Shown: in pieces, positions 9,430-27,400 of the stretch | How the letters are laid out: each line of letters starts with the position of its first letter | How positions within the stretch are numbered: the first letter of the stretch is position 1 | Assembly: GCA_000025185.1 (NCBI GenBank) | Contig: CP001848.1 | Coordinates: forward strand, 4,590,001-4,622,000 | Direction of reading: 5' to 3' | Origin: Pirellula staleyi DSM 6068 | Lineage (GTDB): Bacteria > Planctomycetota > Planctomycetia > Pirellulales > Pirellulaceae | Length of the DNA stretch: 32,000 nt | Made by a program: the position numbers and the translations under genes | The notes under the pieces: model-generated | What the model was told of the DNA's origin: nothing | Databases searched by the model: none | The model's input: only the letters and a program-made list of their open reading frames with translations

Positions 9430-9717
9430 CAATCCACAATGCGCCTGGCTCGCCCGGGAGCGGGGGAGCCTGAGAGGTTTTTCGAACATTTCGCGTCGCA
9501 GGGGCAGTATATCAACAGCTGCGTGCAACTTCATGATGAAGTCCGCTGAAGATCGCTGATTGGACGAATTTTCCTCGCGCTGCGGGCGCTGCCGCGACCG
9601 GTGGAAGGGGAGCTCTCGCGGCGGTATACTCCCGCCACACCACGCAGCGACGCTTGCGCGGTTTTTCGTCCGATGATCCGCCGGCGTGCGCGATTGAATT
9701 TCTTCAGGAGGCTGTCT

Positions 9718-11382: not shown

Positions 11383-13962
11383 TTAATCGAGCGACTGCCA
11401 GCGGAGCCGTAAGCTGCTGAGAACCACCGAAACGCTGCTGAGACCCATTGCAGCAGCGGCGAAAGCAGGGGGGAGCGCGATTCCGAAGATCGGAATGAAA
11501 ACCCCAGCTGCCATTGGGACAAGAATCAGGTTGTACGAAAAAGCCCACAGCACATTTTCTTTAACAATGCGCCGAGCGAGTCGCGCCAGTTTAATCGCAC
11601 GGGCAACTTGCCCTAGCTCTCCTCGAAACAGCACCAAATCGGCCGACTGACGAGCGACATCCACCGCCGTGCTAACAGCAATGCCGAGATCGGCTGCTGC
11701 CAAAGCAGGAGCGTCGTTGATTCCATCCCCCACCATCGCCACCACTTCGCCGCGCGAACGTCGAGCGGCAATTTCCGCAAGCTTCTCTTCCGGACGAACA
11801 CCGCCGCGCACATCGTCGATCCCCACACGCGCCGCTAGTTCTTCAGCAGCCGACTGAGTATCGCCCGAGAGGAGCGCAACGCGAAGTCCACTCGCTTTCA
11901 GCGCCGCAATCGCTTCTTTGCATCCTGGCTGAAGCTGCTCAACCGCTTCGATCGATCCGAGATAGCGATTTCCAATCGCCACATGACAGCGCAGCTTGGC
12001 GGTGAAGCTGGTTGATTCCGAACTCTGCAAATTGTCGTCAACCACAGGTTCGACATCGATTCCATGCGCCGACAACAGAGAACGCTTACCGACGAGCACA
12101 CGCTCGCCACGAACCATGCCTTCCACACCTTCTCCAGCGACCGCGCGGACTTGCTGCGCGATATCGCAGGAAACTTTATCGGCAGTCGCTTTGGCAACAA
12201 TGGCTCGCGCGAGTGGATGACTGCTGAGCCGCTCGATGGCGGAAGCTACCGCCAGAAGTTCCGTCGTCGAGCTGCCCGGCGCAGCCTTGATCGCGCACAC
12301 TTCAGGAAGCGCGAGGCTGAGAGTCCCCGTCTTGTCGAAAACGACCGTGGTGATCTTTCCCGCTTGCTCGATGGCGGCGGCATTCTTCAGCAAAACACCT
12401 TCACGAGCTCCGCGCCCGGCAGCCACCATCATCGCCAGTGGGGCAGCAAGACCGAGTGCACAAGGGCAGGCAACCACCAGCACCGAAGTGGCGCGAATCA
12501 ACGAGTTTTGCCACGTACTGCCGGGAATAAAGAACCACACGATGAACGTGAGAAGTCCCGCGGCGAGTAGAGCCGGTGTGAACCACGCGACAACTTGATC
12601 AGCCAGACGCTGCAGCTTCGACTTCGAGAACTGCATCTCTTCGACCAATTGGGTGAGCTTCGCGACACGAGAGTCGCCACGAGCGCTACGAACTTCAGCC
12701 GTCAGTGATTGGTCGAGATTCACACTTCCGGCGAGCAGCAGATCGCCGGGTCGCTTCTCGACCGGCATCGACTCCCCCGTGAGCCACGCTTCACTTGTGC
12801 TGCTTTGTCCCTCGATGACGGTGGCATCGAGCGGCACGCTCGCGCCGGGCTGGATGACAATCGTCTCTCCCACCTGAACCTGCGAGGAAGGAACTTCCAC
12901 AAGCTGACCAGCACGAAGCACAAGCGTGACTTGCGGTAGCAGCGATGAAAGTCCTGTCACTGATTCCGAGGCCTGCTCGCGGAACTTCGCCTCTAAATAG
13001 CGACCGACCGTAACGAGCGCCAAGATTGTCGCCGCATCGCCGAGCCCCATCCCATGTCCATGCGCCAACGTCTCATAAAGTCCGAGCCCAAACGCGGCTG
13101 TTCCACCGAGGACAATATGGGTATCCATGTTGAGCGAACGGGCGGCAAGACTTCTCCAAGCACTTTGGTAGAACGGCCAACCGATCACCACCTGCAAGAG
13201 GCTCGCCAGCAGCACTAAAATTGCGGTAATTGCAGTTGCTGCAGTGGGAGCGACACTTGGCGAGAACCAACTTCGCGCTATCGATTGGCCGTAGTTTTCG
13301 AGCACCAGAACCGCTGCGGTCAAAACAATCGAAATGATCATTTGCCGGCGCCATTGAAGGGTTTCCTCATGAGCGCGCGATTGACCGGTCGCTGCGTGGT
13401 TAGAAGTTTCGTCGACAATCGAAGCCTGGTAGCCAGCGGCAGTGACAGCCGCTGTGAGTGTTTCGCCAAGCAGGGGGCGGTGACTTGTGATCCGTGCTTG
13501 ATTCGAAGCGAAGTCGACTTCGACTTTCTCAACACCCGGCACACGGGCGAGCGACTGCTCGACACGTGCGACGCAACTGCTGCAGTGCATACCAGAAACC
13601 GAGAGCCGAACGGAAGTCTCGCCAGATGCTGGACGTTCCTCGACTGGAGTTGTCTGGAGAGTAGGTGTCGGTGGATTTGAGGGGGCAAGACCTAGCTGTA
13701 ACAGTTGCGGCTGTTGCGCTGGAGCAGATTTTTGAGAGGTCGACAACTGGGGGGCATCGAGCATCGCGAAGCCTGCTTGCTCAATTGCGCTACGAAGTTG
13801 TTCACGGGGCGGAGCATCTCCTCGAGTGTCGAGTCGGACCGTTCCGGTCTCCAGTTCCACGTCGACATGCTCAACTCCTGGCAACACGGAGAGCGCAGCG
13901 GTCACTTGCTTTACGCAATGGCCACATGTCAGCCCATCGACGCCAAACGTAAGATTCGCCAT
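11383..13962 (-). CDS. copA: Cu(I)/Ag(I)-translocating P1B-type ATPase with two N-terminal HMA domains
   Basis: The ORF track gives 11383..14145. I place the start at ATG 13962 (MANLTFGVDGLTCGHCV). Two metal-binding motifs (GLTCGHCV, GMHCSSCV), TM CPC motif 'VVACPCALGLA', phosphorylation site 'FDKTGTL', hinge 'GDGINDAPAL', and 'YN' and 'MGLSS' in the last TM helices as in Cu(I) exporters. Confidence 0.9.
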   Translation of the reverse strand: MANLTFGVDGLTCGHCVKQVTAALSVLPGVEHVDVELETGTVRLDTRGDAPPREQLRSAIEQAGFAMLDAPQLSTSQKSAPAQQPQLLQLGLAPSNPPTPTLQTTPVEERPASGETSVRLSVSGMHCSSCVARVEQSLARVPGVEKVEVDFASNQARITSHRPLLGETLTAAVTAAGYQASIVDETSNHAATGQSRAHEETLQWRRQMIISIVLTAAVLVLENYGQSIARSWFSPSVAPTAATAITAILVLLASLLQVVIGWPFYQSAWRSLAARSLNMDTHIVLGGTAAFGLGLYETLAHGHGMGLGDAATILALVTVGRYLEAKFREQASESVTGLSSLLPQVTLVLRAGQLVEVPSSQVQVGETIVIQPGASVPLDATVIEGQSSTSEAWLTGESMPVEKRPGDLLLAGSVNLDQSLTAEVRSARGDSRVAKLTQLVEEMQFSKSKLQRLADQVVAWFTPALLAAGLLTFIVWFFIPGSTWQNSLIRATSVLVVACPCALGLAAPLAMMVAAGRGAREGVLLKNAAAIEQAGKITTVVFDKTGTLSLALPEVCAIKAAPGSSTTELLAVASAIERLSSHPLARAIVAKATADKVSCDIAQQVRAVAGEGVEGMVRGERVLVGKRSLLSAHGIDVEPVVDDNLQSSESTSFTAKLRCHVAIGNRYLGSIEAVEQLQPGCKEAIAALKASGLRVALLSGDTQSAAEELAARVGIDDVRGGVRPEEKLAEIAARRSRGEVVAMVGDGINDAPALAAADLGIAVSTAVDVARQSADLVLFRGELGQVARAIKLARLARRIVKENVLWAFSYNLILVPMAAGVFIPIFGIALPPAFAAAAMGLSSVSVVLSSLRLRWQSLD

Positions 13963-13971
13963 AGTGTTTTC

Positions 13972-13999
13972 ATTATACGGTAGTCGGGCAACCTGTCGG
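13972..13999 (-). promoter_or_regulatory. Sigma70-like promoter candidate for the ATPase gene (very short or no leader)
   Basis: On the minus strand: CCGACA (13999-13994), 16-nt spacer, perfect TATAAT (13977-13972). Only 9 nt separate the -10 from the ATG at 13962, and there is no SD. Confidence 0.3.
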
Positions 14000-14028
14000 C
14001 TGGGCGATTTTGACGAAGGATACAGCGA

Positions 14029-15276
14029 ATGCGGGCGGAAGTGATCTCGATCGGCGACGAAATGACCAGCGGGCAGCGACTCGACACCAACAGCCAATGG
14101 CTGAGCGAGCGGCTCGGTGAACTGGGTATTCCAGTCGCCTTTCATACGACAGTTGCCGACAACTTGGCCGACAACATTCAGGTGTTTCGTATCGCCTCCG
14201 AGCGTGCCGATATCGTGATTAGCTCCGGTGGACTGGGACCAACAGCCGACGACTTAACGCGGCAAGCGATCGCTGCAATGGCTGGTGTGGAACTCGTCGA
14301 GTTTCCGGAAGCCCTGGCCCATATCGAGGGGATGTTTGCCCGGCGCAAACGCGCGATGCCCCCCTCGAATCGCGTTCAGGCACTCTTCCCACTCGGCAGC
14401 CGCATGATCCACAATCCCCATGGCTCTGCCCCCGGGATCGACTTTGCTCTTCCTCGTGACGAGCGCGAGCCAGCTCGGATCTTCGCGCTACCCGGTGTGC
14501 CTGCCGAAATGAAGGAGATGTGGGAAGGGACCGTACGCAGTGAACTTCAAAAGCTCACTGGCGGCGGGAAAGTGATTTGTCACTATCGCGTGAAATGCTT
14601 TGGCGTCGGGGAGAGCGATCTCGAGCAGATGTTGCCCGACATTATCCGTCGGGGTCGTGTCCCCAGTGTCGGCATCACTGTCAGCAAAGCAACAATCACG
14701 TTGCGCATCACAGCCGAAGGTCCTGATGAACAAACGTCGCGCGACTCGATGCGTCCCACCATCGATACGATTCACACCTGCCTCGGCACTTTGGTCTATG
14801 GCTACGAGGATGATGAACTCCAGCATGTGCTCGTGCGCGAACTCACTTCACGGTCGAAGCAACTTGGACTCATTGAGATCGGCACCGGGGGACTCATCAC
14901 CAGTTTGATCAACGATGTTCCTGGTGGTCGAGATGTCTTGCGGTCGAGTGTCATCGCCTCATCGACAAAAGATCTTCTGCCGCTGATCCCGAAGCATTAT
15001 TCGCAGTTCGACTTCGACAGCAGTCACGGACTCGAACAAGCAGCCGAGATGTTCCGCGAGCAAATGCAGGCCGACTACGTATTGCTTGTCGGACCGTTTC
15101 CGCCAAGCTACACCCCGACACAGGCACCAGGACAACTCGATATGGTGCTTGCCTATCGCGATGGAGTTCTCGTGAAATCGGTGCCGCATTCGGGACATCC
15201 CGATATTCTTCGTCCACGTTCTGCTAAGCAAGCGATGAACATGCTGCGGCTGCATCTGCTGGAAACCACGCACTAG
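14029..15276 (+). CDS. cinA: CinA-family protein (MoCF-type N-terminal domain plus divergent CinA C-terminal domain)
   Basis: 415-aa ORF with AAGGA 8 nt upstream. N-terminus 'MRAEVISIGDEMTSGQRLDTNSQWLSERLGELG...ISSGGLGPTADDLT...LPGVPAEMKEM' is classic CinA. The C-terminal domain carries 'EIGTGG' where the family normally has 'ESCTGG'. Confidence 0.85.
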   Translation: MRAEVISIGDEMTSGQRLDTNSQWLSERLGELGIPVAFHTTVADNLADNIQVFRIASERADIVISSGGLGPTADDLTRQAIAAMAGVELVEFPEALAHIEGMFARRKRAMPPSNRVQALFPLGSRMIHNPHGSAPGIDFALPRDEREPARIFALPGVPAEMKEMWEGTVRSELQKLTGGGKVICHYRVKCFGVGESDLEQMLPDIIRRGRVPSVGITVSKATITLRITAEGPDEQTSRDSMRPTIDTIHTCLGTLVYGYEDDELQHVLVRELTSRSKQLGLIEIGTGGLITSLINDVPGGRDVLRSSVIASSTKDLLPLIPKHYSQFDFDSSHGLEQAAEMFREQMQADYVLLVGPFPPSYTPTQAPGQLDMVLAYRDGVLVKSVPHSGHPDILRPRSAKQAMNMLRLHLLETTH

Positions 15277-15296
15277 CAAATCCGGTATCAACGAAA

Positions 15297-15326
15297 AGAG
15301 CCACGGCGATATCACGCTGTGGCTCT
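15297..15326 (-). terminator. Rho-independent terminator candidate for the WD40 gene
   Basis: Stem agagccac (15297-15304) / gtggctct (15319-15326), extendable by 3 inner GC pairs. On the minus strand the hairpin is followed directly by TTTCGTT. It lies in the 90-nt gap between convergent cinA and the WD40 gene. Confidence 0.6.
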
Positions 15327-15341
15327 GGATCGGTTGATCGT

Positions 15342-15361
15342 GAGACGGAGATGCTTCCGTC
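15342..15361 (-). terminator. Second small hairpin immediately after the WD40 gene stop
   Basis: 7-bp stem agacgga / tccgtct with a 6-nt loop, 6 nt downstream of the stop at 15367. No U-tract. Confidence 0.3.
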
Positions 15362-15366
15362 TGGTG

Positions 15367-18300
15367 CTACTTCATTTCGACCACTGGTTGCTCGGGAGCA
15401 AACGTGGCCAGTGGTTGTCCTTGGTCGTTCCAGATTCGCAGCACACTATCGGCGCCGCCAGCCAAAATTACTTTGCCATCGGCACTTTGAGCGGCGGTGT
15501 AGATATAGTCCGTAGCTCCGCTGAAATCACGCATGTTGCTTCCATTGGCAGCATTAGTGAGTCGCACACGTTGATCGCCACTGCTGACGAGCACCGCGTC
15601 TCCTTCTCCAGCGAAGTGGACGCTTGTCACTTCTTTGCCGAAGCCTTGAATCGTCCGGACCTGATCACCGGTTCGTGTGTCCCACACCTTCACCACGTTA
15701 TCAGCGCCGCTGCTGACGAGCATCCGTCCATCGGCTCGCCATGTAACACCAAGCACATGATGCGTATGTCCCTCGAACGAACGGACAAATTTACCACCGT
15801 TGACCTCAAACACTTTGACGAACCGATCTGCACCACAGCTGGCAACGTGCTGACCATCGGGTGAGAACTCGATGGAGTAAATCGTATCGCTATGAGCATC
15901 CTTAAGTGTCAGCACGAGATCGCCGGTATCAGCATTCCAGATTTTCAATTCGCCACTTCGTGATGGCTCGCCACCACCGGTTGCGATGAGTTTCCCATCG
16001 GGGCTAAATGCCACTGCGATTACGCGATCCACTAGCTTCTCGGGCGAGTCGGGCGAACCGATCATCCGTTCGAGTTTCCAGTCGACACCGATCTCATGGA
16101 TCATCGCCGTCGGCTGTTTGGCAACGCTCACGAGAAGTCCCGTGTCGCTGAAAGCCACCGCCGCAATAGGGCTGGCATGACCTTCAATCACTTCACCAGC
16201 ACCAGCCGTTTCACCATTCCACAGGTGGAGTAGGTTGTCGTCGCCACCGGTCACAATCCAGTTGCCATCGGCAGAGAAGGCGACACAACGCATCGGTTTA
16301 TCGGCTTCGGTCGCTTGCTTCTGAGTTGCCTCGAGTTGCTGCTGCATTTCGGTGGCGGTTTTTTCGGTGGCAGCGACGATTGCTTCCATGGGAGGAATCG
16401 CTTCGATTGCCTTCTTCACAGAGTCTGCTGCCCGCTCAACACTTCGCTTAGCAGCCTCGAGCGTTCGCTCGGCGGCTACCTTTTCGTCGAATGCCTTCTG
16501 AAATACAGGCATCACTTGCTTGAGCTTCTGATCCGCCTGATTAAAGGCATTCTGAGCATCGCTAGCAGCCTTATCCGCTACTTGCTTGGCTTCATCGGCG
16601 GCCTTTTTTGCAGCTTCAGAGTCCATCACCAGTTTGTCAGCAACAGCCTTGGCATCGGCAGCTACTTTACTAGCTTCTTCGGCGGTCTTGAGTTCGGTTT
16701 CGGCTGTGGCTACTGCATTCTTCAGATCAGCATTTTCTGGATCTTTGCCGAGTGAATCTTTGGCTGCGTTGAGCTTATCGGTTGCTGTTTTGAGAGCAGC
16801 GGTGGTGTCGTTTGCAGCCTTGTTTTTGACATCGCGATCAGCAATAGCAGCGGTGAGAGTGTCGGCTGCTTTCTTCTGATTGTCTGTGGCAGTAACCTTG
16901 TCCGCATCGGCTTTAGTTTTAGCGGCTGTGGTGTCGGCGACTGCTTTTTCAGCTTGTTCTTTTTCTGTAGTCGGAGCTTTGAGCGCTTCGTCTTTCGTTT
17001 TGAACTCTCCTTCGGATTTCGTGAGAGCCTCTTTCGACTTCTTATCGTTCTCTTCTTCTGCGGTCTTTCGTTTACCAGCTTCGGTAACATCGTTCTTGGC
17101 GTGCTCTACCATGCGTTTAGCGAGGGCAAGCTGACGCGACACTTCGCCTGTCTTGATCGTTGCACGAATGTCGCCACGGAACTCGGCGATCATTTGATTG
17201 TTCTCGGCGTTCCACAGCTTGCCGACATTGTTTGCACCCACCGAGACAAAGCGTTTCAGATCGGGGCGAAAGGCAACAGCTTCGACGGGTCCACCGTGAC
17301 TTAGATTCTGTGTAACGTTGCCCCCCTCGAGATTCACTACTCGCGCACTGCCATCGCGAGATCCGGTGAGGACTTGGTTTTTCGAGAGCACGGCAATCGA
17401 AGTAATCGCGCCGCCGTGTCCACCAATTTCTTTCGTAGGCTTGGGGGATTCTCCTTCGATCTTTGCGGTCGGAAGATCCCACAGGCGAAGCGTGTTGTCT
17501 TCACTACCTACAACGATCGACTTGTCCTCAAGCACCACACCGATCGAAAAGATCGGAGAAGGGGTCTCGATCGCAGCGATAAGAGAGCCGTCGGCTAGAT
17601 TCCACGTATGGAGTTTTTTGTCGGCAGCTCCCGAGACGAGCTTGGTGGCGTCGGACGAGAATGCCACGGCGGTGACGGGACCCGCATGGCCCTCGAGTGT
17701 CTTGATCGGCTGACCTGTCGCAAGATCAATCACCTTGATCTTGCCACCTTCTTCACCCACAGCAGCCAGTTTGCGATCGGACGAAATCGCCATCGAGCGT
17801 GCAGCCGACTCGAGACCAGCAATGTCGAGCTTCTTCGTGATGCCTGGCTTCTGCCAGATCTTTACGGTACGAAAACCACCGGAAGCGAGGCGACGACCAT
17901 CGGGACTGAAAGTAAGAGACTGAACAAGATCGAGATCAGCCACGCCAGGCTGCGTGTAGATGCCACGTTCGAGGAGTGCGGGATCGGTGAGTCGGCTTAA
18001 TTCGCGTCGACCAGGAACATGGTAGATCGAGACCTGATTCGCGCGGGCAGCAGCGCCGTACATGCCATCGCGAGTAACAGCGACCGCGTAGATCGGATTA
18101 ATACCAGCCGGAAGTGGCTGCCATGCTATGGGACCTTGCGAAGCCGAGAGGACTTCACCCTTCGCCCCTTGATCGATCCAGAGCTTAATCAAACCGAGTT
18201 CGTCGGACGAAAGTGGTCGTGCCTTCACATCGTTGTCCGCCGGCGGCATCACGGGTTCTTGCTGATGTGCCGACAACTTAAGGAGCAAGCTGCCTGCAGA

Positions 18301-18588
18301 GTTACCAGCAACTACCGAAGGTCCTTCACTCCCACCCTTAATGATCGCAGCGGGATTCTCGAGCACCAAATCGCTTTCCGCTTCAGTCGCGCTATGACAA
18401 GCGAGGCAGTTACGGCGAAAGATCGGCAGGATTTCGCGTTCGAAGTCGACCGGACCTTCGTGCTTCACATCGGCGATGGCAATCGGTGCGGCTTGCAAAC
18501 TCGCGGCACCTGCAGCGAGCGACATAGCTGACGCAACAAAAGCAAGTGTGCGATGGGCAAACAGGCGGGGAAGGATTTTCGAGAGCAT
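15367..18588 (-). CDS. Exported PSCyt1 (planctomycete cytochrome c-like) protein with two seven-bladed WD40 propellers separated by a long helical segment
   Basis: The ORF track gives 15367..18672. Start at ATG 18588 gives the signal peptide 'MLSKILPRLFAHRTLAFVASAMSLAAGAASLQA'. PSCyt1-like 'FEREILPIFRRNCLACHS...LSSDELGLIKLWIDQGA'. I count 7 + 7 WD40-like blades by eye (e.g. 'SLTFSPDGRRLASGG..VKIWQ', 'SIEFSPDGQHVASCGADRFVKVFEV'). Confidence 0.85.
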   Translation of the reverse strand: MLSKILPRLFAHRTLAFVASAMSLAAGAASLQAAPIAIADVKHEGPVDFEREILPIFRRNCLACHSATEAESDLVLENPAAIIKGGSEGPSVVAGNSAGSLLLKLSAHQQEPVMPPADNDVKARPLSSDELGLIKLWIDQGAKGEVLSASQGPIAWQPLPAGINPIYAVAVTRDGMYGAAARANQVSIYHVPGRRELSRLTDPALLERGIYTQPGVADLDLVQSLTFSPDGRRLASGGFRTVKIWQKPGITKKLDIAGLESAARSMAISSDRKLAAVGEEGGKIKVIDLATGQPIKTLEGHAGPVTAVAFSSDATKLVSGAADKKLHTWNLADGSLIAAIETPSPIFSIGVVLEDKSIVVGSEDNTLRLWDLPTAKIEGESPKPTKEIGGHGGAITSIAVLSKNQVLTGSRDGSARVVNLEGGNVTQNLSHGGPVEAVAFRPDLKRFVSVGANNVGKLWNAENNQMIAEFRGDIRATIKTGEVSRQLALAKRMVEHAKNDVTEAGKRKTAEEENDKKSKEALTKSEGEFKTKDEALKAPTTEKEQAEKAVADTTAAKTKADADKVTATDNQKKAADTLTAAIADRDVKNKAANDTTAALKTATDKLNAAKDSLGKDPENADLKNAVATAETELKTAEEASKVAADAKAVADKLVMDSEAAKKAADEAKQVADKAASDAQNAFNQADQKLKQVMPVFQKAFDEKVAAERTLEAAKRSVERAADSVKKAIEAIPPMEAIVAATEKTATEMQQQLEATQKQATEADKPMRCVAFSADGNWIVTGGDDNLLHLWNGETAGAGEVIEGHASPIAAVAFSDTGLLVSVAKQPTAMIHEIGVDWKLERMIGSPDSPEKLVDRVIAVAFSPDGKLIATGGGEPSRSGELKIWNADTGDLVLTLKDAHSDTIYSIEFSPDGQHVASCGADRFVKVFEVNGGKFVRSFEGHTHHVLGVTWRADGRMLVSSGADNVVKVWDTRTGDQVRTIQGFGKEVTSVHFAGEGDAVLVSSGDQRVRLTNAANGSNMRDFSGATDYIYTAAQSADGKVILAGGADSVLRIWNDQGQPLATFAPEQPVVEMK
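16300..17145 (-). other. About 280-aa Ala/Lys/Thr/Asp/Glu-rich predicted helical (coiled-coil-like) segment between the two propellers
   Basis: Translation from 'GEVSRQLALAKRMVEHAKNDVTEAGKRK...' to '...QQQLEATQKQATEADKP'. Almost no Gly or Pro, except 'SLGKDPENADL' (GKDPEN = nt 16732-16749) near the midpoint and 'IPPM' near the end. Confidence 0.6.
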
Positions 18589-18672
18589 GTCTCTACAACC
18601 TTTATCGGAGTTATGCAGCAGTTCTTGGCAAACTGGTGATGATTGACTTTCGACCCATACTTGGGGACGCAA

Positions 18673-21600
18673 CTACTGCGCTGCGGGAGCAGCTTCGACT
18701 TTGATTTTCACTTGCGTCGTTGCGCCGATATCGACGTTGTTGAACTTACCTTTCGCACGAATCGTGACGAGGTGCTCGCCGACCGTGGCATTATCCCCCG
18801 CCATGATTTCGAGCTTACCTTCAGCACCACCTTGCGGGACATTCACCTTCGGAGCCTGAATGCCTTGCACTCCAGGTGGGAGTTCGATGCTGAGTTCGAC
18901 AGCGTCGGCAAACTCGTACTTGCGATCGAGCTTGATCGTGAGTTCCGACTTCTCTTTTTGCTTCACAGCAACTTCAGCAGCCGGTGTGATTGTCAGGGGA
19001 GTCGGGACAATCCGGAGTTTGATGGGACTCGAGACCACCATGAAGTTGACGTCCTTCATTTGGTTGGCATTACGTGTGTCGGTGAGGCGTTTGTCAGCAG
19101 CTTGCTTCAGCTGATTCGCTTGCGCGAGTTGATCCATCGCAAGCTTAGCTGCAGCTTCCGATTCGGTTTTGGCGGTATTGGCAGCATCACGAGCCGCAGT
19201 GGCATCGACCACAGCCTTATCGGCAGTGGCTTTCGTTTCGTCGGCAGTTTTCACCACGGCGGTGAGATCGTCGACTACTTTTTGGGCAGCATTAGCGGCG
19301 TCGACGAGAGCCTGATTGGCTGCATCTTTGCTCGCGGCATCCTTGGCCTGTGTTAGTTTGTCGTTAGCAGCCTTCAGAGCGTCGGCTTGCTTCTTTGCTT
19401 CATTGGCAGCATTCGTTGCATTTTGCTGCGAGGTCTTCAAAGCTGCTTCAGCTTCGGCTGCTTTCTTGGTCGCTTCATCCTTCGCAGTGGTTGCTGTTTT
19501 CTGTTTCTCGGTGAACGTGGCAACCGTCATTTCAGCCTGCTTTTGTTCAGCCTCGGCAGCAGTAACCGCTTCGACGTTGCGGCCATACTTTCGCTTCGCT
19601 TCTGTGCTGAGGTAGAAGGTATAGGTACCGGGCTTGATGTTGTTTTGGGTCAGCTCGATTTCGAGTTTGCCATCGCCAGCACCGCCACCAATCGCCACTT
19701 CTTTGGGCTTAATCTGGTCGGGCAAACCATCGGCTTGCAGTTTGAGTTCGTCTTTAAATTCGCCGCGACGCAAGACACTCACAGGAATCGAAAGTTTGCC
19801 ACCTAGCGACGTTTCCCAAACTTTGTCTTCACCGGCGGTCACTTGCACGGGAAGCGTATCTTTCTCGGCGACAGCAAGATAGAAATGGGGTGTGAGACGA
19901 AACTTGCCGGGTTGCTGTTGGCGGTTGGGCGTTCCCCAAGTCACCTGGGCATAGCGGGCTTCGCGAACAAGTTCTTTGTCTCCTACGATGCTTTTGCCGA
20001 TCACGCGAATCGTGCCGCACCAGTTGGCAGCTTGATCGTTCGCCGAGAAGACCAACTTCGCGCGGTTTACTTCACCCCCGAGCAGAGCGCCGGTGCATGT
20101 CACGCCGGCAGGCAAACCCTCGACGGATAGCTGCACTTCACCTTGGAAATCATCGCGACGTTGCAGCACGACATCTACCGACGAGTTGCTGCCGCGATAT
20201 AGCGCAAGTGCGCCAGATGGAATCTGATTATTGTTCTGCTTCCGTCCAGCTTCAGGTGGATCATTCTCGACCAGCAAGCGAAAATCGGGAGCCAGGGGAC
20301 GCATAGCCAGTCGATAAACGTTGCCCGGATTGGCCACACCTTCGCCAAACTGATCGCGCACAAGTACGCGATAGGTGCCATCTTCGGGAACCAAGAATCG
20401 GAGCGATGGGTCGTCGCTTGTCGAATCGAAATCGCTACCAATCCGCTGCTGACGCTCCTGCGAATCATCCACCTGCATCAAGTCGTTAACTTTCTCGACA
20501 CCTGCCTCGTCCTTGGTGATTCGGAAAAAAGAAATCGCGGGATCACTCTCGAGACCTGCTTGATTCGAGATCACTTCGATCCAGTAGATATCACCCTTTT
20601 TGGCGTCGAATTGATACCAGTCGACATCTCCTTCAGGATAAAACTGACCAGCGATATCCACGGGAAGGGTGACGACTTGCGCATCGGTTGTTTTGTCACT
20701 CGCTTGTTGTTCGAGCACGACCGGAGCAGTTGCGAACTGCAGGGGAATGCCAACCGTGGCACTGCCGAAGTTGTGCTTGTGCTCGAACGTGTCGAGCCAT
20801 GCACCACGCGTTGGTGCTTGCTGGCAAACCACATGAGCAGCACCATCGCCAGGAATCCCAATGTTCAGTTGCACCTTTTCGAGCGGAACACCATCGATCT
20901 TCATACCGTCGGCAGGTTGGCTGCCAGGAAGGTTGCGACCGTAAATCCAGTAAGCACCACTGGAACCAGGAACACCTGCGGGTGGAAACACGAAATCGAT
21001 GATCGGCGAACTGCTGACCGACAAGCGATAGAAATAGTCGGGACCGCCACCAAAAATCGAATCGTTCAGCTTGATGAGGAAGTCGCCGGTGGTCGGCGCG
21101 GTGAAAACAAGCTGCGCATCTCGCGCAACATTAGCGCGCGCTCGCGCGAGTTGTTTACCATCGCTGCTAAGAACCGCCACCAGCGGACTCAGCCGCGAAT
21201 CGATACGGTCGGCCGTGACGTCGATCGTCACTTTCTCCCCTTGCTTTAGCGAGAGTTTAAAAAAGTCGCTGTTCGAGGCGTCGACCCGTCCGCTGAAGAC
21301 CTGCCCCAGCGTCATGGCGACTGCATTCTCGATGGCCGAGTTCGCGGCAGCTTCAACTACTTCCTCTTGACCACTCACCACAAAACGTCGTGCGCTAGAG
21401 AGACCAAAACGACCGAACGCGCGCACTTCGTATACGCCAGCAGGGACATCCCCCGCGATCTGCAGGGTGTAGACATTCGCAATCGGCTTAGCCGTCGGCT
21501 CGAACTCGGTGGGGGCCGACATTTTGGGGGTCGCCGCGATGCCGGGATGCGAAAACACCAGCTGCGTAATATCGTCGAGATCAGTTCCAGCGAGCGTCAC

Positions 21601-21759
21601 CTCGACCGTGGTTCCCTGGCGTCCCCCGGGCGGAAAGATGCTGGCGAGTTGAGGCCGTGGCATTTGTGCCACTGCGACGGAAGCCATCGCCAAAACCATA
21701 GCGAGCGGGCTTACGGCACGCTTCATGGCAGCAGCGAGCAGGGCGAAAAAAGCTGGCAT
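18673..21759 (-). CDS. Exported multi-domain protein: two IPT-like + PPC (pre-peptidase C-terminal type) units, further beta-sandwich domains, long helix, C-terminal beta-sandwich
   Basis: The ORF track gives 18673..21816. The preferred start is ATG 21759 (AGGAG 7 nt upstream); ATG 21726 (MKRAVSPLAMVLAMASVAVAQ) is an alternative. PPC-like segments 'SDFFKLSLKQGEKVTIDV...GDFLIKLND...YRLSV' and 'GDVDWYQFDAKKGDIYWIEV...GTYRVLVRD...VYRLAM'. Recurrent 'LSVEGLPAGV / LQADGLPDQI / LSIELPPGV' domain signature. Confidence 0.8.
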   Translation of the reverse strand: MPAFFALLAAAMKRAVSPLAMVLAMASVAVAQMPRPQLASIFPPGGRQGTTVEVTLAGTDLDDITQLVFSHPGIAATPKMSAPTEFEPTAKPIANVYTLQIAGDVPAGVYEVRAFGRFGLSSARRFVVSGQEEVVEAAANSAIENAVAMTLGQVFSGRVDASNSDFFKLSLKQGEKVTIDVTADRIDSRLSPLVAVLSSDGKQLARARANVARDAQLVFTAPTTGDFLIKLNDSIFGGGPDYFYRLSVSSSPIIDFVFPPAGVPGSSGAYWIYGRNLPGSQPADGMKIDGVPLEKVQLNIGIPGDGAAHVVCQQAPTRGAWLDTFEHKHNFGSATVGIPLQFATAPVVLEQQASDKTTDAQVVTLPVDIAGQFYPEGDVDWYQFDAKKGDIYWIEVISNQAGLESDPAISFFRITKDEAGVEKVNDLMQVDDSQERQQRIGSDFDSTSDDPSLRFLVPEDGTYRVLVRDQFGEGVANPGNVYRLAMRPLAPDFRLLVENDPPEAGRKQNNNQIPSGALALYRGSNSSVDVVLQRRDDFQGEVQLSVEGLPAGVTCTGALLGGEVNRAKLVFSANDQAANWCGTIRVIGKSIVGDKELVREARYAQVTWGTPNRQQQPGKFRLTPHFYLAVAEKDTLPVQVTAGEDKVWETSLGGKLSIPVSVLRRGEFKDELKLQADGLPDQIKPKEVAIGGGAGDGKLEIELTQNNIKPGTYTFYLSTEAKRKYGRNVEAVTAAEAEQKQAEMTVATFTEKQKTATTAKDEATKKAAEAEAALKTSQQNATNAANEAKKQADALKAANDKLTQAKDAASKDAANQALVDAANAAQKVVDDLTAVVKTADETKATADKAVVDATAARDAANTAKTESEAAAKLAMDQLAQANQLKQAADKRLTDTRNANQMKDVNFMVVSSPIKLRIVPTPLTITPAAEVAVKQKEKSELTIKLDRKYEFADAVELSIELPPGVQGIQAPKVNVPQGGAEGKLEIMAGDNATVGEHLVTIRAKGKFNNVDIGATTQVKIKVEAAPAAQ
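19060..19572 (-). other. About 170-aa Gly/Pro-free Ala/Lys/Thr/Asp-rich predicted helix
   Basis: Translation from 'EAVTAAEAEQKQAEMTVATFTEKQK...' to '...KQAADKRLTDTRNANQMKD'. It contains no Gly or Pro, and its composition mirrors the helical segment of the downstream gene. Confidence 0.6.
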
Positions 21760-21949
21760 CAGGAGACTCCTGAGTGATCGATAAATCGCGGGGGGAAAGG
21801 GCGGGAGAGCAGACAACAGGGGATGCTGTCACTCGGCGAATCTCGAGGCGAGCATCCGGTTGGATGGTACGCCAGAATTCGTAACAGGCAGGAAGGAGAC
21901 CGCTTTTCCAACGACCAAGTTTAGTTCGTTGTACAGTTCATCGCCGACA

Positions 21950-21986
21950 GAAATCTCAGGAATTATCACCTAACTCCTGAGATTTC
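21950..21986 (-). terminator. Perfect 12-bp hairpin 25 nt after the DUF1549/DUF1553 gene stop (terminator, attenuator or RNA-processing element)
   Basis: gaaatctcagga (21950-21961) / tcctgagatttc (21975-21986) with a 13-nt loop. No U-tract follows on the minus strand. Confidence 0.45.
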
Positions 21987-22010
21987 ATTGACGACCTTTT
22001 ACGCAACTCT

Positions 22011-24512
22011 TTAGTGATTAAAGAGAAACTCTTTCGTATTGATCAGAGCCCAAACAATATCTTCGTAGGCTCGCTTGGGGTCCTCAGCGTTCTTTTCGAT
22101 GTGAGCCACAGCAACAGCCAGTTCTTCGGGCAGGGGGGCCCGGCCGAAGGTGAGGAGATAAAGCTCACGAATCTTCACGTCGTGCGGACGCTCTTTGTCA
22201 GCAGCCAACTTGGCAGCGCGACCACCACCGCTCGTGAGTTTGCCTTGAATCTCGCCCGAGTTGAGCAGGTGCAAGCTCTGAGCCAGATTGGCCTCGCTCG
22301 ATCGTTCGCACTCGCAAGCCGAACTCGACTCTGGCCGACCAAACACGGTGAGGAAGTAGCTATTGAAGCCGTTGTCGGGCAACTGCACGGCGCGGGTTCC
22401 GTTGGGAACACCACCAAAGTTGCTTTGCGTTCCGGTCACCTGATCGATGGCGTCGAGCAGCACTTCGGCATTGAGTCGCTTGGGGTAGTAGCGGCTGAAG
22501 TTTTGCTTGTCGTCCTGATTCCACTCATTGGGCTCCGCCGTGAGCTGATAGGTGCTCGAGCTGCAGATCGTATGGCAGAGCTTCTTCAGATCGAACTTGC
22601 TGTCGACAAAGTCCTTGGCCAGTGCATCCAAGAGCGCTGGATTCGAGGCCGGATTGGTCACCCGCATGTCATCTTCGGGATCGACCAGACCACGACCAAA
22701 GAAATGCTTCCAGTATCGATTCACAAGCGAGCGTGCGAAGAATGGGTTACTCGGGTCCGACATCCAATCGGCCAGGGCGCGACGAGGATCTTCGTCGGCA
22801 GTCAGTTCGAGCGGAGCGCTCCCAAGTCCGGTGGGCTTCACGGCCTGACCGGTCTTTGGGTTACTCGCCTGCGCGATCCCTCGGCGATGGTAGATTCGAT
22901 CTTCGTTTTGCACTTCACCACGCTTACGACCCACTTGAGCAAAGAAGGCGGCAAAACCGTAGTAGTCTTGCTGACTCCATTTTTCAAACGGATGGTGATG
23001 GCAGCGGGCACATTGAATGCGTAGTCCCAGGAACAGCTGAGCCGTATCCTCGACCTGTGCCGACTGATCTTTCACTTCGCGATACCAAGCTACAGGAGCA
23101 TTTTTGCCCGCTTCGCCGGTAGCCGTCAGGATTTCGCGTACGAACTGATCGTACGGTTTGTTTTCGTGCAAACTTGTCCGAATCCAGTCGTGAAACGTGA
23201 AGGTGTAGTTCTTTTCGAAATCTTGGCGACGCTTGTTACGCAGGATTGCGTTCCACTTGTTGCCAAAGTAATCGGCGTAGTCGGTGCTTTCGAGCAAACG
23301 TCGAATGACGTTATCCCGTTTGTTAGGGTCGGCATCAGCCAGAAACTGTTCCGCTTCCTCAAGCTTTGGCAAGCGACCAGCGAGGTCGACCGTCACACGA
23401 CGAAGAAAGGTGGCATCGTCACTAACACCCGACGATGGCAAACCGAGATCGCCCAATTTTTTGAAAACCAATTCGTCGATGAAGTTCTTCTTGCCGACGT
23501 TTGACTCGGACTTTACGCCGAGGGGAACAGTGGCGCGGAACACACCGACGTGACCTTGGTAGCGCGCCATGATGGCGACACTACCGGTCAATTGGCCCGT
23601 CGTCACCAGACCGGTAACACTCACTTCGGCCATTTCGGTGTCGTTGCTGTCAAACTGAGCTGTACGCGTGACATCTTCGGTCGAGCCGTCACTGAGGTGA
23701 GCAATCACCACCGCTTGTTGCGTGGTGCTGCGATCCATCAGGCGTTCCGAAGGAAAGACTTCGATATGCGTAACGACCGGATCAGTCTCTTTGCCGTAAG
23801 GCATTCCTTGCTCGATCCAGCGTTTCATCAGGCGATAGGCTGGGGAGTCGAAATCAACACGCTGTCCGCCACCGTGAGGCAGGCGTGCGGTTGCCTTGAG
23901 GAGCAGCAAACTTTGATCGGGAGCAGCGGGGAAGATTCGCCGGCCGCGTCCTTCTTTGACGAGATATTCGTAGTCTTCCTTGGGCTCGAAACCTAAGAGT
24001 GAAAGACGGAAACCGTTTTGGCCACCACTCTTTCCGTGGCAGCCACCACCGTTGCAGCTGTATTTCGTGAAAAGGGGGGTGATCTGGTTGGCGAAGTTGA
24101 TGGGCAGATCGGTCACAAGGTTGGTGACACGGGATTTCAGCTGCAGTTTCTGACCAGCGGCGTCGACCTCGATCGTGGTTTCCCCTTCAGCAATGGGGGT
24201 CACGAGGCCAGTTTCGTCGATTGCCACAATACCGGCAGGATTAGCCGAGTATTTGGACGAGCGGGTTAGGTCGCGGGTTTGTCCGCTGTTATAGAGACCT
24301 GTAACCACGAGTTGCTGAACAGCGTCGCGACCCGAGAGTGTAAAGAGTCCATCGACAGTGCGACCGGTATCGACCTGAATCGATGTCAGCTGACCAGGAT
24401 CACCGAGACCTGGAGCCTTCGGTTTTTCGTCGGCGGCATACGAGCTCGAGGCAAAAAGTAAGCAACTAAGAAGCAAGAGCCGAGAGAGCGGCAGGTGGGG
24501 ACGTGAGGGCAT
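22011..24512 (-). CDS. Exported Ig-like (Big_2-type) + PSCyt2 (DUF1549) + PSD1 (DUF1553) protein
   Basis: 833-aa ORF with GGAAGGGA SD 6 nt upstream. Signal peptide 'MPSRPHLPLSRLLLLSCLLFASSSYA'. Two Big_2-like segments ('AIDETGLVTPIAEGETTIEV', 'VSVTGLVTTGQLTGSVAIMA'). 'CNGGGCHGKSGGQNGFRLSLLG'. DUF1549-like 'FIDELVFKKLGDLGLPSSGVSDDATFLRRVTVDLAGRLP'. 'IQCARCHHHPFEKWSQQDYYGFAAFF'. DUF1553-like 'LVNRYWKHFFGRGLV...ACECERSSEANLAQSLHLLNS'. Confidence 0.88.
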   Translation of the reverse strand: MPSRPHLPLSRLLLLSCLLFASSSYAADEKPKAPGLGDPGQLTSIQVDTGRTVDGLFTLSGRDAVQQLVVTGLYNSGQTRDLTRSSKYSANPAGIVAIDETGLVTPIAEGETTIEVDAAGQKLQLKSRVTNLVTDLPINFANQITPLFTKYSCNGGGCHGKSGGQNGFRLSLLGFEPKEDYEYLVKEGRGRRIFPAAPDQSLLLLKATARLPHGGGQRVDFDSPAYRLMKRWIEQGMPYGKETDPVVTHIEVFPSERLMDRSTTQQAVVIAHLSDGSTEDVTRTAQFDSNDTEMAEVSVTGLVTTGQLTGSVAIMARYQGHVGVFRATVPLGVKSESNVGKKNFIDELVFKKLGDLGLPSSGVSDDATFLRRVTVDLAGRLPKLEEAEQFLADADPNKRDNVIRRLLESTDYADYFGNKWNAILRNKRRQDFEKNYTFTFHDWIRTSLHENKPYDQFVREILTATGEAGKNAPVAWYREVKDQSAQVEDTAQLFLGLRIQCARCHHHPFEKWSQQDYYGFAAFFAQVGRKRGEVQNEDRIYHRRGIAQASNPKTGQAVKPTGLGSAPLELTADEDPRRALADWMSDPSNPFFARSLVNRYWKHFFGRGLVDPEDDMRVTNPASNPALLDALAKDFVDSKFDLKKLCHTICSSSTYQLTAEPNEWNQDDKQNFSRYYPKRLNAEVLLDAIDQVTGTQSNFGGVPNGTRAVQLPDNGFNSYFLTVFGRPESSSACECERSSEANLAQSLHLLNSGEIQGKLTSGGGRAAKLAADKERPHDVKIRELYLLTFGRAPLPEELAVAVAHIEKNAEDPKRAYEDIVWALINTKEFLFNH

Positions 24513-24852
24513 GAGGTTTCCCTTCCAAGCGGTGCCAAGGTGTGACGACTATCCATAGCCGGAGGGCGATACGGAGGGCTGGAAGCGATTATTGTCATCG
24601 CCAACTGTCGATGCAAGCACATTTCAACATTTGTTGATGGGTTGCCCGATTTCCGCACAGGGGGTGTTAGCGGAAATCAGCCTTCCACTGAATGCACTTC
24701 ATGGGCAGCTGACTTCCCATGGCACCCCAGGATACGTTGGTTACGCAGTTTCTTGCCGATTGGGGCGAAAAGAAGGAAGATTCGGCTGAAAGTACACCTG
24801 GGGAACTCTGCGATTACGGCTGGCGTGGCCACACGGGTGTAACGTGTCTACG

Positions 24853-24887
24853 AAAAAGGGCCTTCAACTCTGAGAGAGGAAGGCCCT
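24853..24887 (-). terminator. Rho-independent terminator of the PpiD-like gene
   Basis: Stem agggccttc (24857-24865) / gaaggccct (24879-24887), with an inner ctct/agag helix. On the minus strand it is followed by a T-run (plus-strand aaaaa at 24853-24857). It lies 64 nt after the stop at 24950. Confidence 0.7.
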
Positions 24888-24949
24888 GGAAGACGTTCAA
24901 ATTATCGTTGCTAAGGCAGCGTTCGGCGCCGGCTCAGCCAAATCTACGA

Positions 24950-27400
24950 TTAACGATCGTTGTCGAAAACAATCGGACGGAGCCACTTCACCGAGTACTC
25001 GGTATCGATGGCGTTGAGCATCTTCATCATGGACTGGCGAGCTTCAATCATCGCCATCTGCTGCACTTGTTGCGAGGCACCTGTTTCCAGGAACTTCTCG
25101 CGGCGAATCTCTTCCGAAGGCTCGTCACTGATCATTCGGACGACGTAGACCACCTTGCCGGGCTGATCGACCGCCACACAAGCTTCACCTGGCTTGAGGT
25201 CGAACACAGCACGACGGAAATCGTCGCCAGCCAGCGGGATGCCATCGACATCGCTGAGGGTCGGGCCATTCGATCCCATCCCCATCGCGGTGAATCCGGC
25301 GGTAAACCAACTGAACGGAGCAGGCTTAACGACCTTCGCGGCATCAGGAACCGCTTTTTCAACACTTCCGGCTGCCTTCACTTTGTCGACGTATTTCTGA
25401 GCTTCTTCCTTGGCCAGCGTTAGAGCTTCCTTCATTTTGTAGAAGGCAATGACGTCGTCTTTCACTTCGTCGAACGTGACATCGGCAGCAGGTTCTTCCT
25501 GGGTACGCCAGAAGATGCACGATCCATTACCGAACACACCGTCGCCGCGGCTCATCATTTCGCGAGGGTTGTACAGCAAATCGCTACCGGAGTAGGCAAT
25601 CTGTGCGAAATCGAATTGCTGAAAACCTTGCGAAAAATCGATCGCAATCAGGTTCTTGCCGAGTTCGGATTCGTACGATTCCGCGGCACTCATCAGTTCG
25701 GTCGTGCCCGACTCAAGGTTGTACTTCTTCGAGAGGGCTGGGAGATCGAGTGCGGGTAGTTCTGGCTTAGGCCCCTTGGCGGTTTCCGCCTTGAGCTTGG
25801 CACTGTTGTAAGCCCGCGAGAACGAGCGAAGTTCGTCGATCACGCCCTTCACAGCCGTCGTTCGCATTTCGCTGGCGATAGGCTGAGCAAGCTGATTGAG
25901 GATGGCTTCGCGAACTTCCGCCAGTGGCTTCACTGCGGGAGCAGGAGGAGTGGTTGGTGGAAGCGCTGGATCGGCTGGCTTTTCGCCAGCAGGGGGCTCT
26001 GCCGCCGGCGTTTCGGTGGCTGGAGTTTCTGCAGCAGGCTTTTCTGCTGGTTCTGCTGGTTTTTCCTCGGCAGGCTTCTCTTCAGCCGGCTTAGCTTCTT
26101 CCGCTGGTTTTTCAGCAGGAGCATCAGCTGGCTTCTCTTCCGCAGGTTTTTCGGGGGCTGGTTCTTCCTGGCAACCACCTTCAGGCTTGGCCTCTTCCGC
26201 TGGCTTTTCAGCAGGCGTTTCGGGTTTGGCTTCTTCAGGTTTTGCTGCTTCCGGAGCAGGTTCAGCAGGCTTTTCCTCGGCTGGTTTCTCCGCCTCTGGT
26301 TTCGCTGCCTCTGGTTTCGCTGCCTCTGGCTTGGGTTCTTCGGCCGGCGTCTCTGGTTTCGGCGTTTCACCTGCGGGAGCTTCGGGCTTGGGAGTTTCCG
26401 TCGCGGGAGTCTCTGGGGCAGGGGTTTCCGTCGCGGGAGATTCAGGCTTCGGTGTCTCGGCAGGAACTTCGACCCGATGCTTACCTTGCGACACTTCCAA
26501 GTCGTACTGCTTTTGGATTTGCTCCTCAGTTACCTGTTTTTTGGCAATTTCCAAGTATTTATCGAAATCGACTTTCAGGTAGCCAAAAGCGATGCGAGCG
26601 GGACGATGAAAACCGGGCTCGGCACTCGCTGGATCGGGATCGTTGTCTTTACCCTCTTCGAACAGGGCACGCAGTTTGGGATCGTTCGCAGCCGGATCGG
26701 GAACTTTGCTGACAAACTGCTTCACGTCGATCGGATAGGCTTCGATCGAAGCCCGGCGGTCGAGGCGATTGAAGTAGTCCCAAAGTTCCGTCGTACCGAT
26801 CGAAAGAATCGGATCGCGGATCAGCATGATCTCGTGCTGAGCCAGGAGTTCCGATTCCAAATGTTCCAGCAACTGCTGCACGCTCACCAGGGCGTCGCGC
26901 GGCGTCACTTGATTGGCAATGTCGATCCAGTCACCCTCGGTGACCACGAAATCGCTCAATCGACTCAGGAATTGCTTGACTGCTTCTTTGTCGACGACCA
27001 CGCCAGCAGCCCGCGCTTTGCGGGCCAATAGCATCCGGCGAACGACCGACAGTTCGCTCGAATCGGGGTCGATACCAGGATTCAGTACCTCGCCCGTTTG
27101 TGGGTTGACCATCAGCATCGGAGCCGACGGTTTTCCTCCCAGGGCGAGCGAGCGTGTCACAATGCCGCGGCAGAAATTCACAGCCACGGTGTGCAGCATT
27201 CGCTCGCGAGCGATTTCGCTTTCGGTCAGGCGTCCCCCTCGGAAAGTGACGACAGTTTTGTCGGCTCCCGAACGTCCACCCAGGCCCACAGCGTCCAAAA
27301 GGAAGGGGCCAACGACCCAGGTGATCATCAAAACCACCCCGACCGCAGCCACGATGAGCTTCTGATTCTTCCGCAAATAACTATTGAACTGACTAGCCAT
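24950..27400 (-). CDS. N-terminally anchored periplasmic chaperone-like protein (PpiD/SurA-N-like) with a 180-aa Pro/Glu/Ala/Lys-rich insert
   Basis: 816-aa ORF. '[35 protein letters not shown]' is a signal-anchor like PpiD. The flanking regions resemble SurA-N/PpiD-type chaperone domains. I saw no clear parvulin PPIase motif. The functional call is tentative. Confidence 0.55.
25931..26470 (-). repeat. Low-complexity coding repeat region (PEAK-rich: [11 protein letters not shown] units)
   Basis: Encodes '...[38 protein letters not shown]...[21 protein letters not shown]...'. At the DNA level, the 15-bp unit gcctctggtttcgct occurs twice perfectly in tandem (26292-26321) plus a degenerate third copy. 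The 16-mer gtttccgtcgcgggag recurs at 26394 and 26424. Confidence 0.85.

Follow-up and report, generated by a model that had tools for sequence, protein, structure and literature searches.

Three syntenic genes for exported PSCyt/PSD1, PPC and WD40 proteins in Pirellula staleyi: candidate subunits of a periplasmic complex

The locus and its three genes

We analyzed a window of 32,000 nucleotides from Pirellula staleyi DSM 6068 (contig CP001848.1, positions 4,590,001 to 4,622,000 of the forward strand; "the window" denotes this whole stretch), which contains a block of three consecutive minus-strand genes, here named g1, g2 and g3, that encode large exported proteins built from PSCyt, PSD1, Ig-like, PPC and WD40 domains. 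A first-pass annotation of the window had delimited these genes, and the open reading frame (ORF) list and translations bear out the positions and sizes that it gave. The genes and their products are:

22011..24512, minus strand: g1, 833 amino acids (aa), from the ORF list and translation; signal peptide, Big_2, cryptic PSCyt1-like domain, Big_2, PSCyt2 (DUF1549), PSD1 (DUF1553)
18673..21759, minus strand: g2, 1028 aa from ATG, the ORF continuing to a TTG at 21816; signal peptide, beta-sandwich run (two PPC, one weakly TIG-like), helical hairpin, C-terminal beta-sandwich
15367..18588, minus strand: g3, 1073 aa from ATG, the ORF continuing to a TTG at 18672; signal peptide, PSCyt1, WD40 propeller, long coil, WD40 propeller (Pfam)

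The g1 and g2 products match, with 100% identity and full coverage, the P. staleyi proteins annotated as 'protein of unknown function DUF1549' and 'peptidase domain protein', respectively. Every domain named in the first-pass annotation was recovered by Pfam profile search, and the signal-peptide-like N-terminus that it saw on each product is of the Sec type by sequence, the alignment of g2 orthologues keeping an AxA-QLP junction. No membrane anchor is predicted in g1, g2 or g3, and Pfam found no carbohydrate-binding module in any of the three. The annotation also reported no catalytic signature; neither Pfam nor NCBIfam gave a match to an enzyme family (the NCBIfam scan of g1, g2 and g3 added no catalytic family), but the three genes are probably an incomplete system, the DUF1501 gene of the published module described below having been argued to be enzymatic.

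Conservation of the gene order

One genome per species was scanned for relatives of g2, which were found in 424 genomes, and the best 80 loci (L numbers below) were kept; the related loci belong to Pirellulaceae and other Pirellulales, to Planctomycetaceae (Fuerstiella among them) and to one metagenome-assembled genome (MAG) labelled Limisphaerales. g1 and g3 were placed in these loci by tblastn and ORF mapping, and the counts refer to evaluable loci. g1 lies directly upstream of g2 in 59/63 loci, counting L021, in which g1 is frameshifted, and g3 lies directly downstream of g2 in 46/51. The neighbourhood comparison proposed in the first-pass annotation found orthologues that are syntenic, not scattered: the complete g1-g2-g3 set, unchanged in order and strand, occurs in 40 of the 45 fully evaluable loci, with differing flanks. 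Order and strand are kept at a g2 identity of only 35-53% with the flanking genes changed, and three g2 homologues (44-51% identity) each lie in g1-g2-g3 order on one strand among other neighbours. The 816-aa gene upstream of the trio in the window is absent from all 83 related loci, and in 14 of the related loci the convergent cinA gene (14029-15276, plus strand) stands beside the trio.

The g2 family is large (4,190 clusters at 50% identity with E <= 1e-30), and g2-like paralogues without g1 or g3 occur in 4-5 loci (L053, L063, L069, L074, L058). A genome usually has one trio and now and then a second, distinct type. In this second cluster type, found mainly in Planctomycetaceae (L059, L065, L075, L077, L079, L081), g3 reaches about 1645 aa, with PSCyt1, additional propellers and a coil of 265 aa, and added triple-propeller WD40 genes flank the cluster on both sides; both types coexist in MAG NP86 (L028 and L065). 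The extra multi-propeller WD40 proteins of the variant clusters are as expected for a large assembly.

Conservation of g1 and the haem-type motifs

g1 is the most conserved member of the trio. Median identity of the orthologues to the window protein is 72% for g1 (58 orthologues), 51% for g3 (45) and 42% for g2; the 120 best matches listed for g1 are all at least 71% identical over the full length, and g1 is 70-82% identical between genera from soil, freshwater and marine samples. For a protein from an expanded family, of which a genome has about 40 paralogues, such conservation is striking; 41 copies each of the DUF1549 and DUF1553 domains have been counted in R. baltica (PMC2754498). The domains of g1, assigned by Pfam, by profile comparison or from an AlphaFold2 (AF2) model, and the PSCyt1 domain of g3 are:

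24123..24389, minus strand: first Big_2-type Ig-like domain, g1 aa 42-130 (AF2 strands; Big_2 repeats of PDB 9ifo and 9pt5; Foldseek Ig-like)
23799..24110, minus strand: cryptic PSCyt1-like domain, g1 aa 135-238 (hhalign against g3 PSCyt1)
23526..23774, minus strand: second Big_2, g1 aa 247-329 (Pfam PF02368, E 3e-7; AF2 strands)
22932..23480, minus strand: PSCyt2/DUF1549, g1 aa 345-527 (Pfam, E 2.4e-51)
22101..22784, minus strand: PSD1/DUF1553, g1 aa 577-804 (Pfam, E 2.1e-45)
18235..18408, minus strand: PSCyt1, g3 aa 61-118 (Pfam PF07635, E 1e-11)

Both C-terminal domains of g1 lie far above the Pfam gathering thresholds (PSCyt2, PF07583, 175.1 versus 29.8 bits; PSD1, PF07587, 155.5 versus 28.5 bits). 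The cryptic domain has no Pfam match by itself and is homologous to the PSCyt1 domain of g3, as indicated by hhalign of the orthologue profiles (probability 96%, E 2.7e-9) and by pairwise Smith-Waterman alignment (z 4.8). It contains an invariant C153-x4-C158-H159 (CX4CH), a variant spacing relative to CXXCH, and its invariant P212-H213-G-G-G aligns where g3 has an invariant M-P-P.

The first-pass annotation reported the Cys-His motifs CNGGGCH (g1), CARCH (g1) and CLACH (g3). All of them are there, and no variation is seen among 59 orthologues for either g1 motif or among 46 for CLACH. Within PSCyt2 of g1 the invariant stretch is C501-A-R-C504-H505-H-H (59 orthologues), and g3 has an invariant C61-L-A-C64-H65 together with M114-P-P (46 orthologues), so that all candidate haem-type motifs of g1 and g3 are invariant in every orthologue aligned; in PSD1 of g1, C733-E-C735-E-R is kept in 57/59. 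The AF2 model of g1 (predicted local distance difference test, pLDDT, 72.7) loses confidence at the motif loops aa 153-193, 500-511 and 699-744, falling below 50 at the latter two, which would be compatible with cofactor-dependent folding and is proof of nothing. Compared with c-type cytochromes with His/Met ligation, the PSCyt1 domain of g3 is alike in its invariant CXXCH and downstream M-P-P within about 60 residues, but it has no detectable sequence relationship to a solved cytochrome, and the copy in g1 has CX4CH, with His replacing Met.

The published module and DUF1501

The first-pass annotation took the trio for an unrecognized assembly. This proved mistaken: Kamneva et al. (Genome Biol Evol 2012, PMC3542564) analyzed the neighbourhoods of DUF1501 genes in the Planctomycetes-Verrucomicrobia-Chlamydiae (PVC) group, and their 'most complex' cluster consists of four genes, for a DUF1501 protein, a weak-PPC protein, a PSCyt1/Big_2/PSCyt2/PSD1 protein and a PSCyt1/WD40 protein. 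The PPC protein has a signal peptide, and the DUF1501 protein, sometimes with a twin-arginine signal, was argued by the authors to be enzymatic. g1, g2 and g3 share domain architectures, signal peptides and adjacency with the three non-DUF1501 members, whereas the window and most Pirellulaceae loci differ from the four-gene module in that the cluster is without DUF1501. The study, which found the module in Verrucomicrobia too, gave the cluster no function and reported its correlation with 'intracellular membranes' (r = 0.852), a cell plan that a passage of PMC5394234 describes as since reinterpreted as an enlarged periplasm.

The remark in the first-pass annotation that it knew of no experimentally established function for PSCyt1, PSCyt2 and PSD1 agrees with our literature search, which included a 2025 review of the phylum and found neither a report of the trio's function nor a characterized homologous system. 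That review (PMC12673574) leaves the PSCyt, PSD1 and DUF1501 families unmentioned, two other papers (PMC5615132, PMC5587647) count PSCyt genes or note WD40 genes as neighbours of DUF1501 genes and go no further, and the search returned no experimental work on the PSCyt, PSD1 or DUF1501 families. Data from TraDIS (transposon-directed insertion-site sequencing) have been published for Planctopirus limnophila (PMC10632474) and Verrucomicrobium spinosum (PMC12283558). The text of the Gemmata pore-membrane proteome study (PMC5287468) mentions beta-propeller proteins, and the terms WD40, cytochrome and DUF15 are absent from it.

By Pfam, none of the 13 largest ORFs of the window, the ones scanned, encodes a DUF1501 protein. 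DUF1501 ORFs flank the trio in about 14/83 related loci, and most of these are unrelated paralogues with 30-40% identity. In three loci (L006, L007 and L054), a DUF1501 gene lies directly upstream of g1; identity among the three proteins is 92-95%, and to the tandem copies of L041, with which they form one subfamily, they show 55-59% identity. The full trio of the MAG labelled Limisphaerales (Verrucomicrobiota) has directly upstream of it, at L041 756-4872, three DUF1501 genes in tandem that share 63-71% identity with one another. The trio-linked DUF1501 proteins have about 454 aa and a twin-arginine translocation (TAT) signal (the L054 copy matches Pfam DUF1501 with E 4e-84), the 120 best database relatives listed for the L054 protein are 69-93% identical, and the gene often stands alone. 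In Lignipirellula cremea (L084 11407-12726), the orphan conserved DUF1501 gene adjoins cinA, the gene that follows the trio in the window, and the cinA neighbourhoods hint at an ancestral arrangement of trio, DUF1501 and cinA. The orphan DUF1501 protein, conserved as strongly as g1 and encoded next to g1 in some genomes, would be the obvious candidate partner of g1.

The same L. cremea locus contains a separate mini-cluster (L084 3009-7225) that encodes a short PSCyt2/PSD1 protein of 595 aa, a DUF1501 protein of 422 aa and a WD40 protein of 362 aa with one propeller, which makes WD40, DUF1501 and PSCyt2/PSD1 a recurring combination. With the two-gene PSCyt2-PSD1 and DUF1501 pairs, of which a planctomycete genome has tens, g1 shares PSCyt2, PSD1 and the CxxCH and CxC motifs; it differs in having no adjacent DUF1501 gene, in its two Big_2 domains and CX4CH PSCyt1-like domain, in standing alongside g2 and g3, and in a conservation above that expected for the expanded family.

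Alternatively, the trio might capture and process a polymer from outside, for instance a glycan, or an organic compound that is sulfated or phosphorylated, in a nutrient-specific system in which the PPC, Ig-like and WD40 domains would bind and a DUF1501 hydrolase would cleave. PPC domains (PF04151) are substrate-binding accessories of secreted peptidases, DUF1501 does flank the trio in some loci, and carbohydrate-binding modules have been described in other PSCyt proteins, whose genes are also found close to sulfatases (PMC5615132, PMC3542564). However, such modules are lacking in g1, g2 and g3, a genome usually has one trio, and an identity of g1 as high as that found across soil, freshwater and marine genera is unusual for nutrient-specific systems; we regard this explanation as distinctly unlikely.

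Helical hairpins of fixed length

The beta-sandwich and coiled-coil parts of g2, and the coil between the propellers of g3, are located as follows:

20356..20628, minus strand: PPC, g2 aa 378-468 (Pfam PF04151, E 9e-12)
21100-21303, minus strand: weaker second PPC, g2 aa 153-220 (Pfam PF04151, E 0.004)
19066..19575, minus strand: g2 hairpin, aa 729-898 (AF2 helices H729-811 and H816-898, 83 residues each, about 12 nm)
16291..17178, minus strand: g3 hairpin, aa about 471-766, between the propellers (arms of about 150 aa, about 22 nm)

The PPC domain of g2 has the conserved motif GQFYP..D.DW..F.AKKG, and in the AF2 model of g2 (pLDDT 79.7) the hairpin projects from the penultimate beta-sandwich domain. 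The coil of g3 appears to be a hairpin as well, given that its tip lies at the coil centre (motif KDSLGKDPEN at aa 610, a tip motif common to g2 and g3), that the g2 and g3 coils are colinear, tip to tip (Smith-Waterman z 9.9 against composition-preserving shuffles), and that its length variants are symmetric about the tip, with +84 and +84 aa in L001 and L005. Short forms of g3 have tip-centred deletions, and nested tip-centred deletions occur in g2 orthologues. The comparison of the g2 and g3 coils by hhalign (probability 98%, E 3e-14) indicates homology of the two hairpins, with the reservation that profile comparisons of coiled coils are prone to compositional bias.

The anchor-to-anchor length of the coil is exactly 175 aa in 47/72 orthologues of g2 and exactly 308 aa in 24/46 orthologues of g3, while pairwise identity within the coils is 37% (g2) and 51% (g3); fixed lengths despite a drifting sequence are the signature of a length constraint. 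The lengths of the two coils do not co-vary (Spearman 0.19, p 0.21), so the hairpins probably do not pair over their full length, and a model of such side-by-side pairing was dropped.

The fixed, ruler-like lengths of the hairpins would also suit a purely structural element of the envelope, that is, a periplasmic skeleton or spacer, or a part of the crateriform pits and fibres, in which the Cys-His motifs serve folding or metal binding, with no redox role and no DUF1501. g1, g2 and g3 consist of scaffold modules only, the variant clusters add WD40 propeller proteins, DUF1501 is non-adjacent in most loci, and what crateriform structures and the apparatus of macromolecule uptake are made of is yet to be identified (PMC12673574). 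A structural role does not readily account for the invariance of CX4CH, CXXCH and M-P-P, nor for three proteins with no predicted membrane anchor. Moreover, we know of no description of crateriform structures in Verrucomicrobia. The module is found there too (PMC3542564; L041), and g1, the most conserved member, is from a family that as a rule pairs with DUF1501 (PMC3542564). Overall, we consider a purely structural element unlikely.

Signals between and around the genes

The intergenic regions contain the following predicted RNA structures:

21950..21986, minus strand: 16-bp perfect stem-loop, 24 nt past the g1 stop, no U-run (fold z -5.2; 0/200 shuffles as good)
15289..15326, minus strand: terminator-like hairpin (15297-15326) followed by UUUUCGUU, 3' of g3 (fold z -4.0; 0/200 shuffles as good)
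24850..24887, minus strand: GC-rich stem (stem region 24857-24887) and U-run terminator after the upstream 816-aa gene (fold z -2.8)

The first-pass annotation had described an 84-nt gap without a hairpin between g2 and g3 and a terminator-like hairpin after g3; the former indeed shows no structure beyond chance (fold z 0.03), and the latter, followed by UUUUCGUU, is common to the convergent cinA gene. Its proposal of co-transcription is thus consistent with the unstructured g2-g3 spacer, but a single transcript of all three genes is made doubtful by the stem-loop after g1. Scored against mononucleotide shuffles, the 100-nt segment beyond the g1 stop shows unusually strong folding in 54% of 70 orthologous loci (median z -2.2), as against 20% of loci (median z +0.2) for the 100 nt after g2, and the post-g1 stem-loop recurs as a structure, without conservation of its sequence. 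Given this structured region, g1 may be expressed separately from g2-g3, or at another level; the stem-loop could be an intercistronic stabilizer or a partial terminator that sets the ratio of g1 to g2-g3. Terminators after the upstream gene and after g3 insulate the block on both sides, and the former leaves 24513-24850 as the likely promoter region. No sigma-70-like promoter was detected in 14900-25200 by a scan that does not cover planctomycete promoter types.

The arrangement after g1, with a stem-loop and a spacer of about 250 nt, would also be expected if the products were functionally independent exported proteins that are neighbours by shared ancestry, g1 forming one transcription unit and g2-g3 another. 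The independent variation of the g2 and g3 hairpin lengths and the g2-like paralogues that occur without g1 or g3 in 4-5 loci point the same way. Adjacency and order persist, however, across families at 35-40% g2 identity with all flanks changing, and the same set recurs in Verrucomicrobia (PMC3542564); in addition, a homologous hairpin module is common to g2 and g3, and a PSCyt1-type domain to g1 and g3. Independence of the three proteins appears highly improbable.

Comparison with other known systems

In shape, the trio is reminiscent of the AcrA/MacA/HlyD adaptors, in which an antiparallel helical hairpin of lineage-specific length likewise stands on a beta-rich exported protein, and one g2 homologue has been auto-annotated as AcrA. 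The trio differs from these systems in having no adjacent transporter or outer-membrane channel gene and in the Ig-like/WD40 contexts of its hairpins. The identification as a periplasmic adaptor (HlyD, AcrA) was rejected, with no HlyD, lipoyl or beta-barrel matches of g2 or g3 in Pfam or NCBIfam; the likeness is one of shape only.

As a long beta-sandwich array, g2 also resembles the alpha-2-macroglobulin/complement/CD109 proteins, which Foldseek ranked first; the search returned generic Ig/macroglobulin (MG) arrays only, with a template modelling (TM) score of about 0.1. Membership of g2 in this family was likewise rejected (TM about 0.1 to CD109, C5 and A2M; no CGEQ thioester motif in g2), and g2 differs from it by its PPC domains and coiled-coil hairpin.

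Other features of the window

The gene upstream of the trio (24950-27400, minus strand) encodes an 816-aa protein with an N-terminal transmembrane helix, a Pro/Glu/Lys/Ala (PEKA) linker of about 170 aa and no Pfam match. Dips of the AT skew (about -0.3) at 16001-17000, 19001-20000 and 26001-27000 coincide with the g3 coil, the g2 coil and the PEKA linker of this gene, respectively, and AT skew alone flags the low-complexity helical or linker segments in the window. On the other side of the trio, also on the minus strand, 11383-14145 encodes a heavy-metal P-type ATPase of 920 aa that has two HMA domains (in L001, too, such an ATPase lies near the trio), 6892-10023 a 1043-aa protein with multihaem cytochrome c signatures (c7, c552, c554, paired CXXCH) and HEAT and TPR repeats, and 1343-3847 an 834-aa ORF without a Pfam match, whose product resembles a J-domain at its N-terminus and includes a transmembrane segment and a long stretch rich in Pro.

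Interpretation

Judging from their sequences and synteny, g1, g2 and g3 may well be Sec-exported subunits of one periplasmic complex, a proposition to which we would give an even chance. Among the PVC-specific 'PSCyt / PSD1 / DUF1501' modules, such a complex would be the best conserved. Within it, g1 would be the functional core, with two invariant haem-type motifs (CX4CH and CXXCH), and, by analogy with the DUF1549-DUF1553 and DUF1501 pairs, could work with a TAT-exported DUF1501 protein encoded outside the window, presumably of hydrolase type. g2, a putative beta-sandwich rod, and g3, with its cytochrome-c-like domain and two WD40 propellers, would both provide scaffold, and their fixed-length hairpins (about 12 nm and about 22 nm) might set distances in the wide planctomycete periplasm. 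The haem-type sites, of which there would be up to three, could have a role in electron transfer or sensing. The three proteins are thus predicted to bind one another, the motifs to carry haem, and DUF1501 to be their partner. As to the substrate, we would guess at a housekeeping step in the processing of the envelope or of imported polymers, and not at a nutrient-specific one, in view of how strongly the trio is conserved and of its having no carbohydrate-binding modules.

Several observations weigh against this interpretation. The homology of the hairpins was obtained with comparisons that are open to compositional bias, the coil lengths are uncorrelated, and docking of g2 and g3 through the hairpin tips found no support, the tips not being the best conserved part of either coil. 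The strong stem-loop and the spacer of about 250 nt after g1 may mean that g1 and g2-g3 are separate transcripts. Haem binding is predicted from the motifs, as PSCyt1 and PSCyt2/PSD1 are without relatives among solved structures: a phmmer search of the PDB with g3 PSCyt1 returned only chance-level CXXCH matches (E >= 0.48), and Foldseek found no PDB fold match for the PSCyt2/PSD1 core of g1, returning Ig-like domains only. Finally, DUF1501 is non-adjacent in most loci, and no P. staleyi protein is among the 120 best matches listed for the trio-linked DUF1501 subfamily.

In its most specific form, the proposed complex would combine the trio with the orphan DUF1501 protein into a PVC-specific periplasmic machine of fixed dimensions, whose rulers position up to three haems and a hydrolase between the membranes; to this we attach only a slim chance. 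If true, it would be a housekeeping device of the enlarged periplasm, for example as part of the apparatus for macromolecule uptake and degradation or of that for the crateriform structures, with no counterpart in model bacteria.

To conclude, the trio itself has been known since 2012 (PMC3542564) and is of moderate interest, as a well-defined target and not as a discovery. New in this work are the cryptic PSCyt1-like domain of g1, the invariance of the motifs, the excess conservation of g1, the homologous hairpins of quantized length, the stem-loop after g1 and the DUF1501 subfamily that adjoins g1 in some genomes. Of the function-unassigned families of Planctomycetota and Verrucomicrobiota, PSCyt, PSD1 and DUF1501 are some of the largest, a genome having tens of copies. 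The trio is the best way into them: it is usually single-copy, it is syntenic across families, and one of its members is exceptionally conserved. Its testable features are the three candidate haem sites, the two fixed-length coiled-coil rods and the DUF1501 protein as candidate partner. Solving the trio would give a first function to a family of thousands and could explain part of the unusual periplasm of these bacteria.

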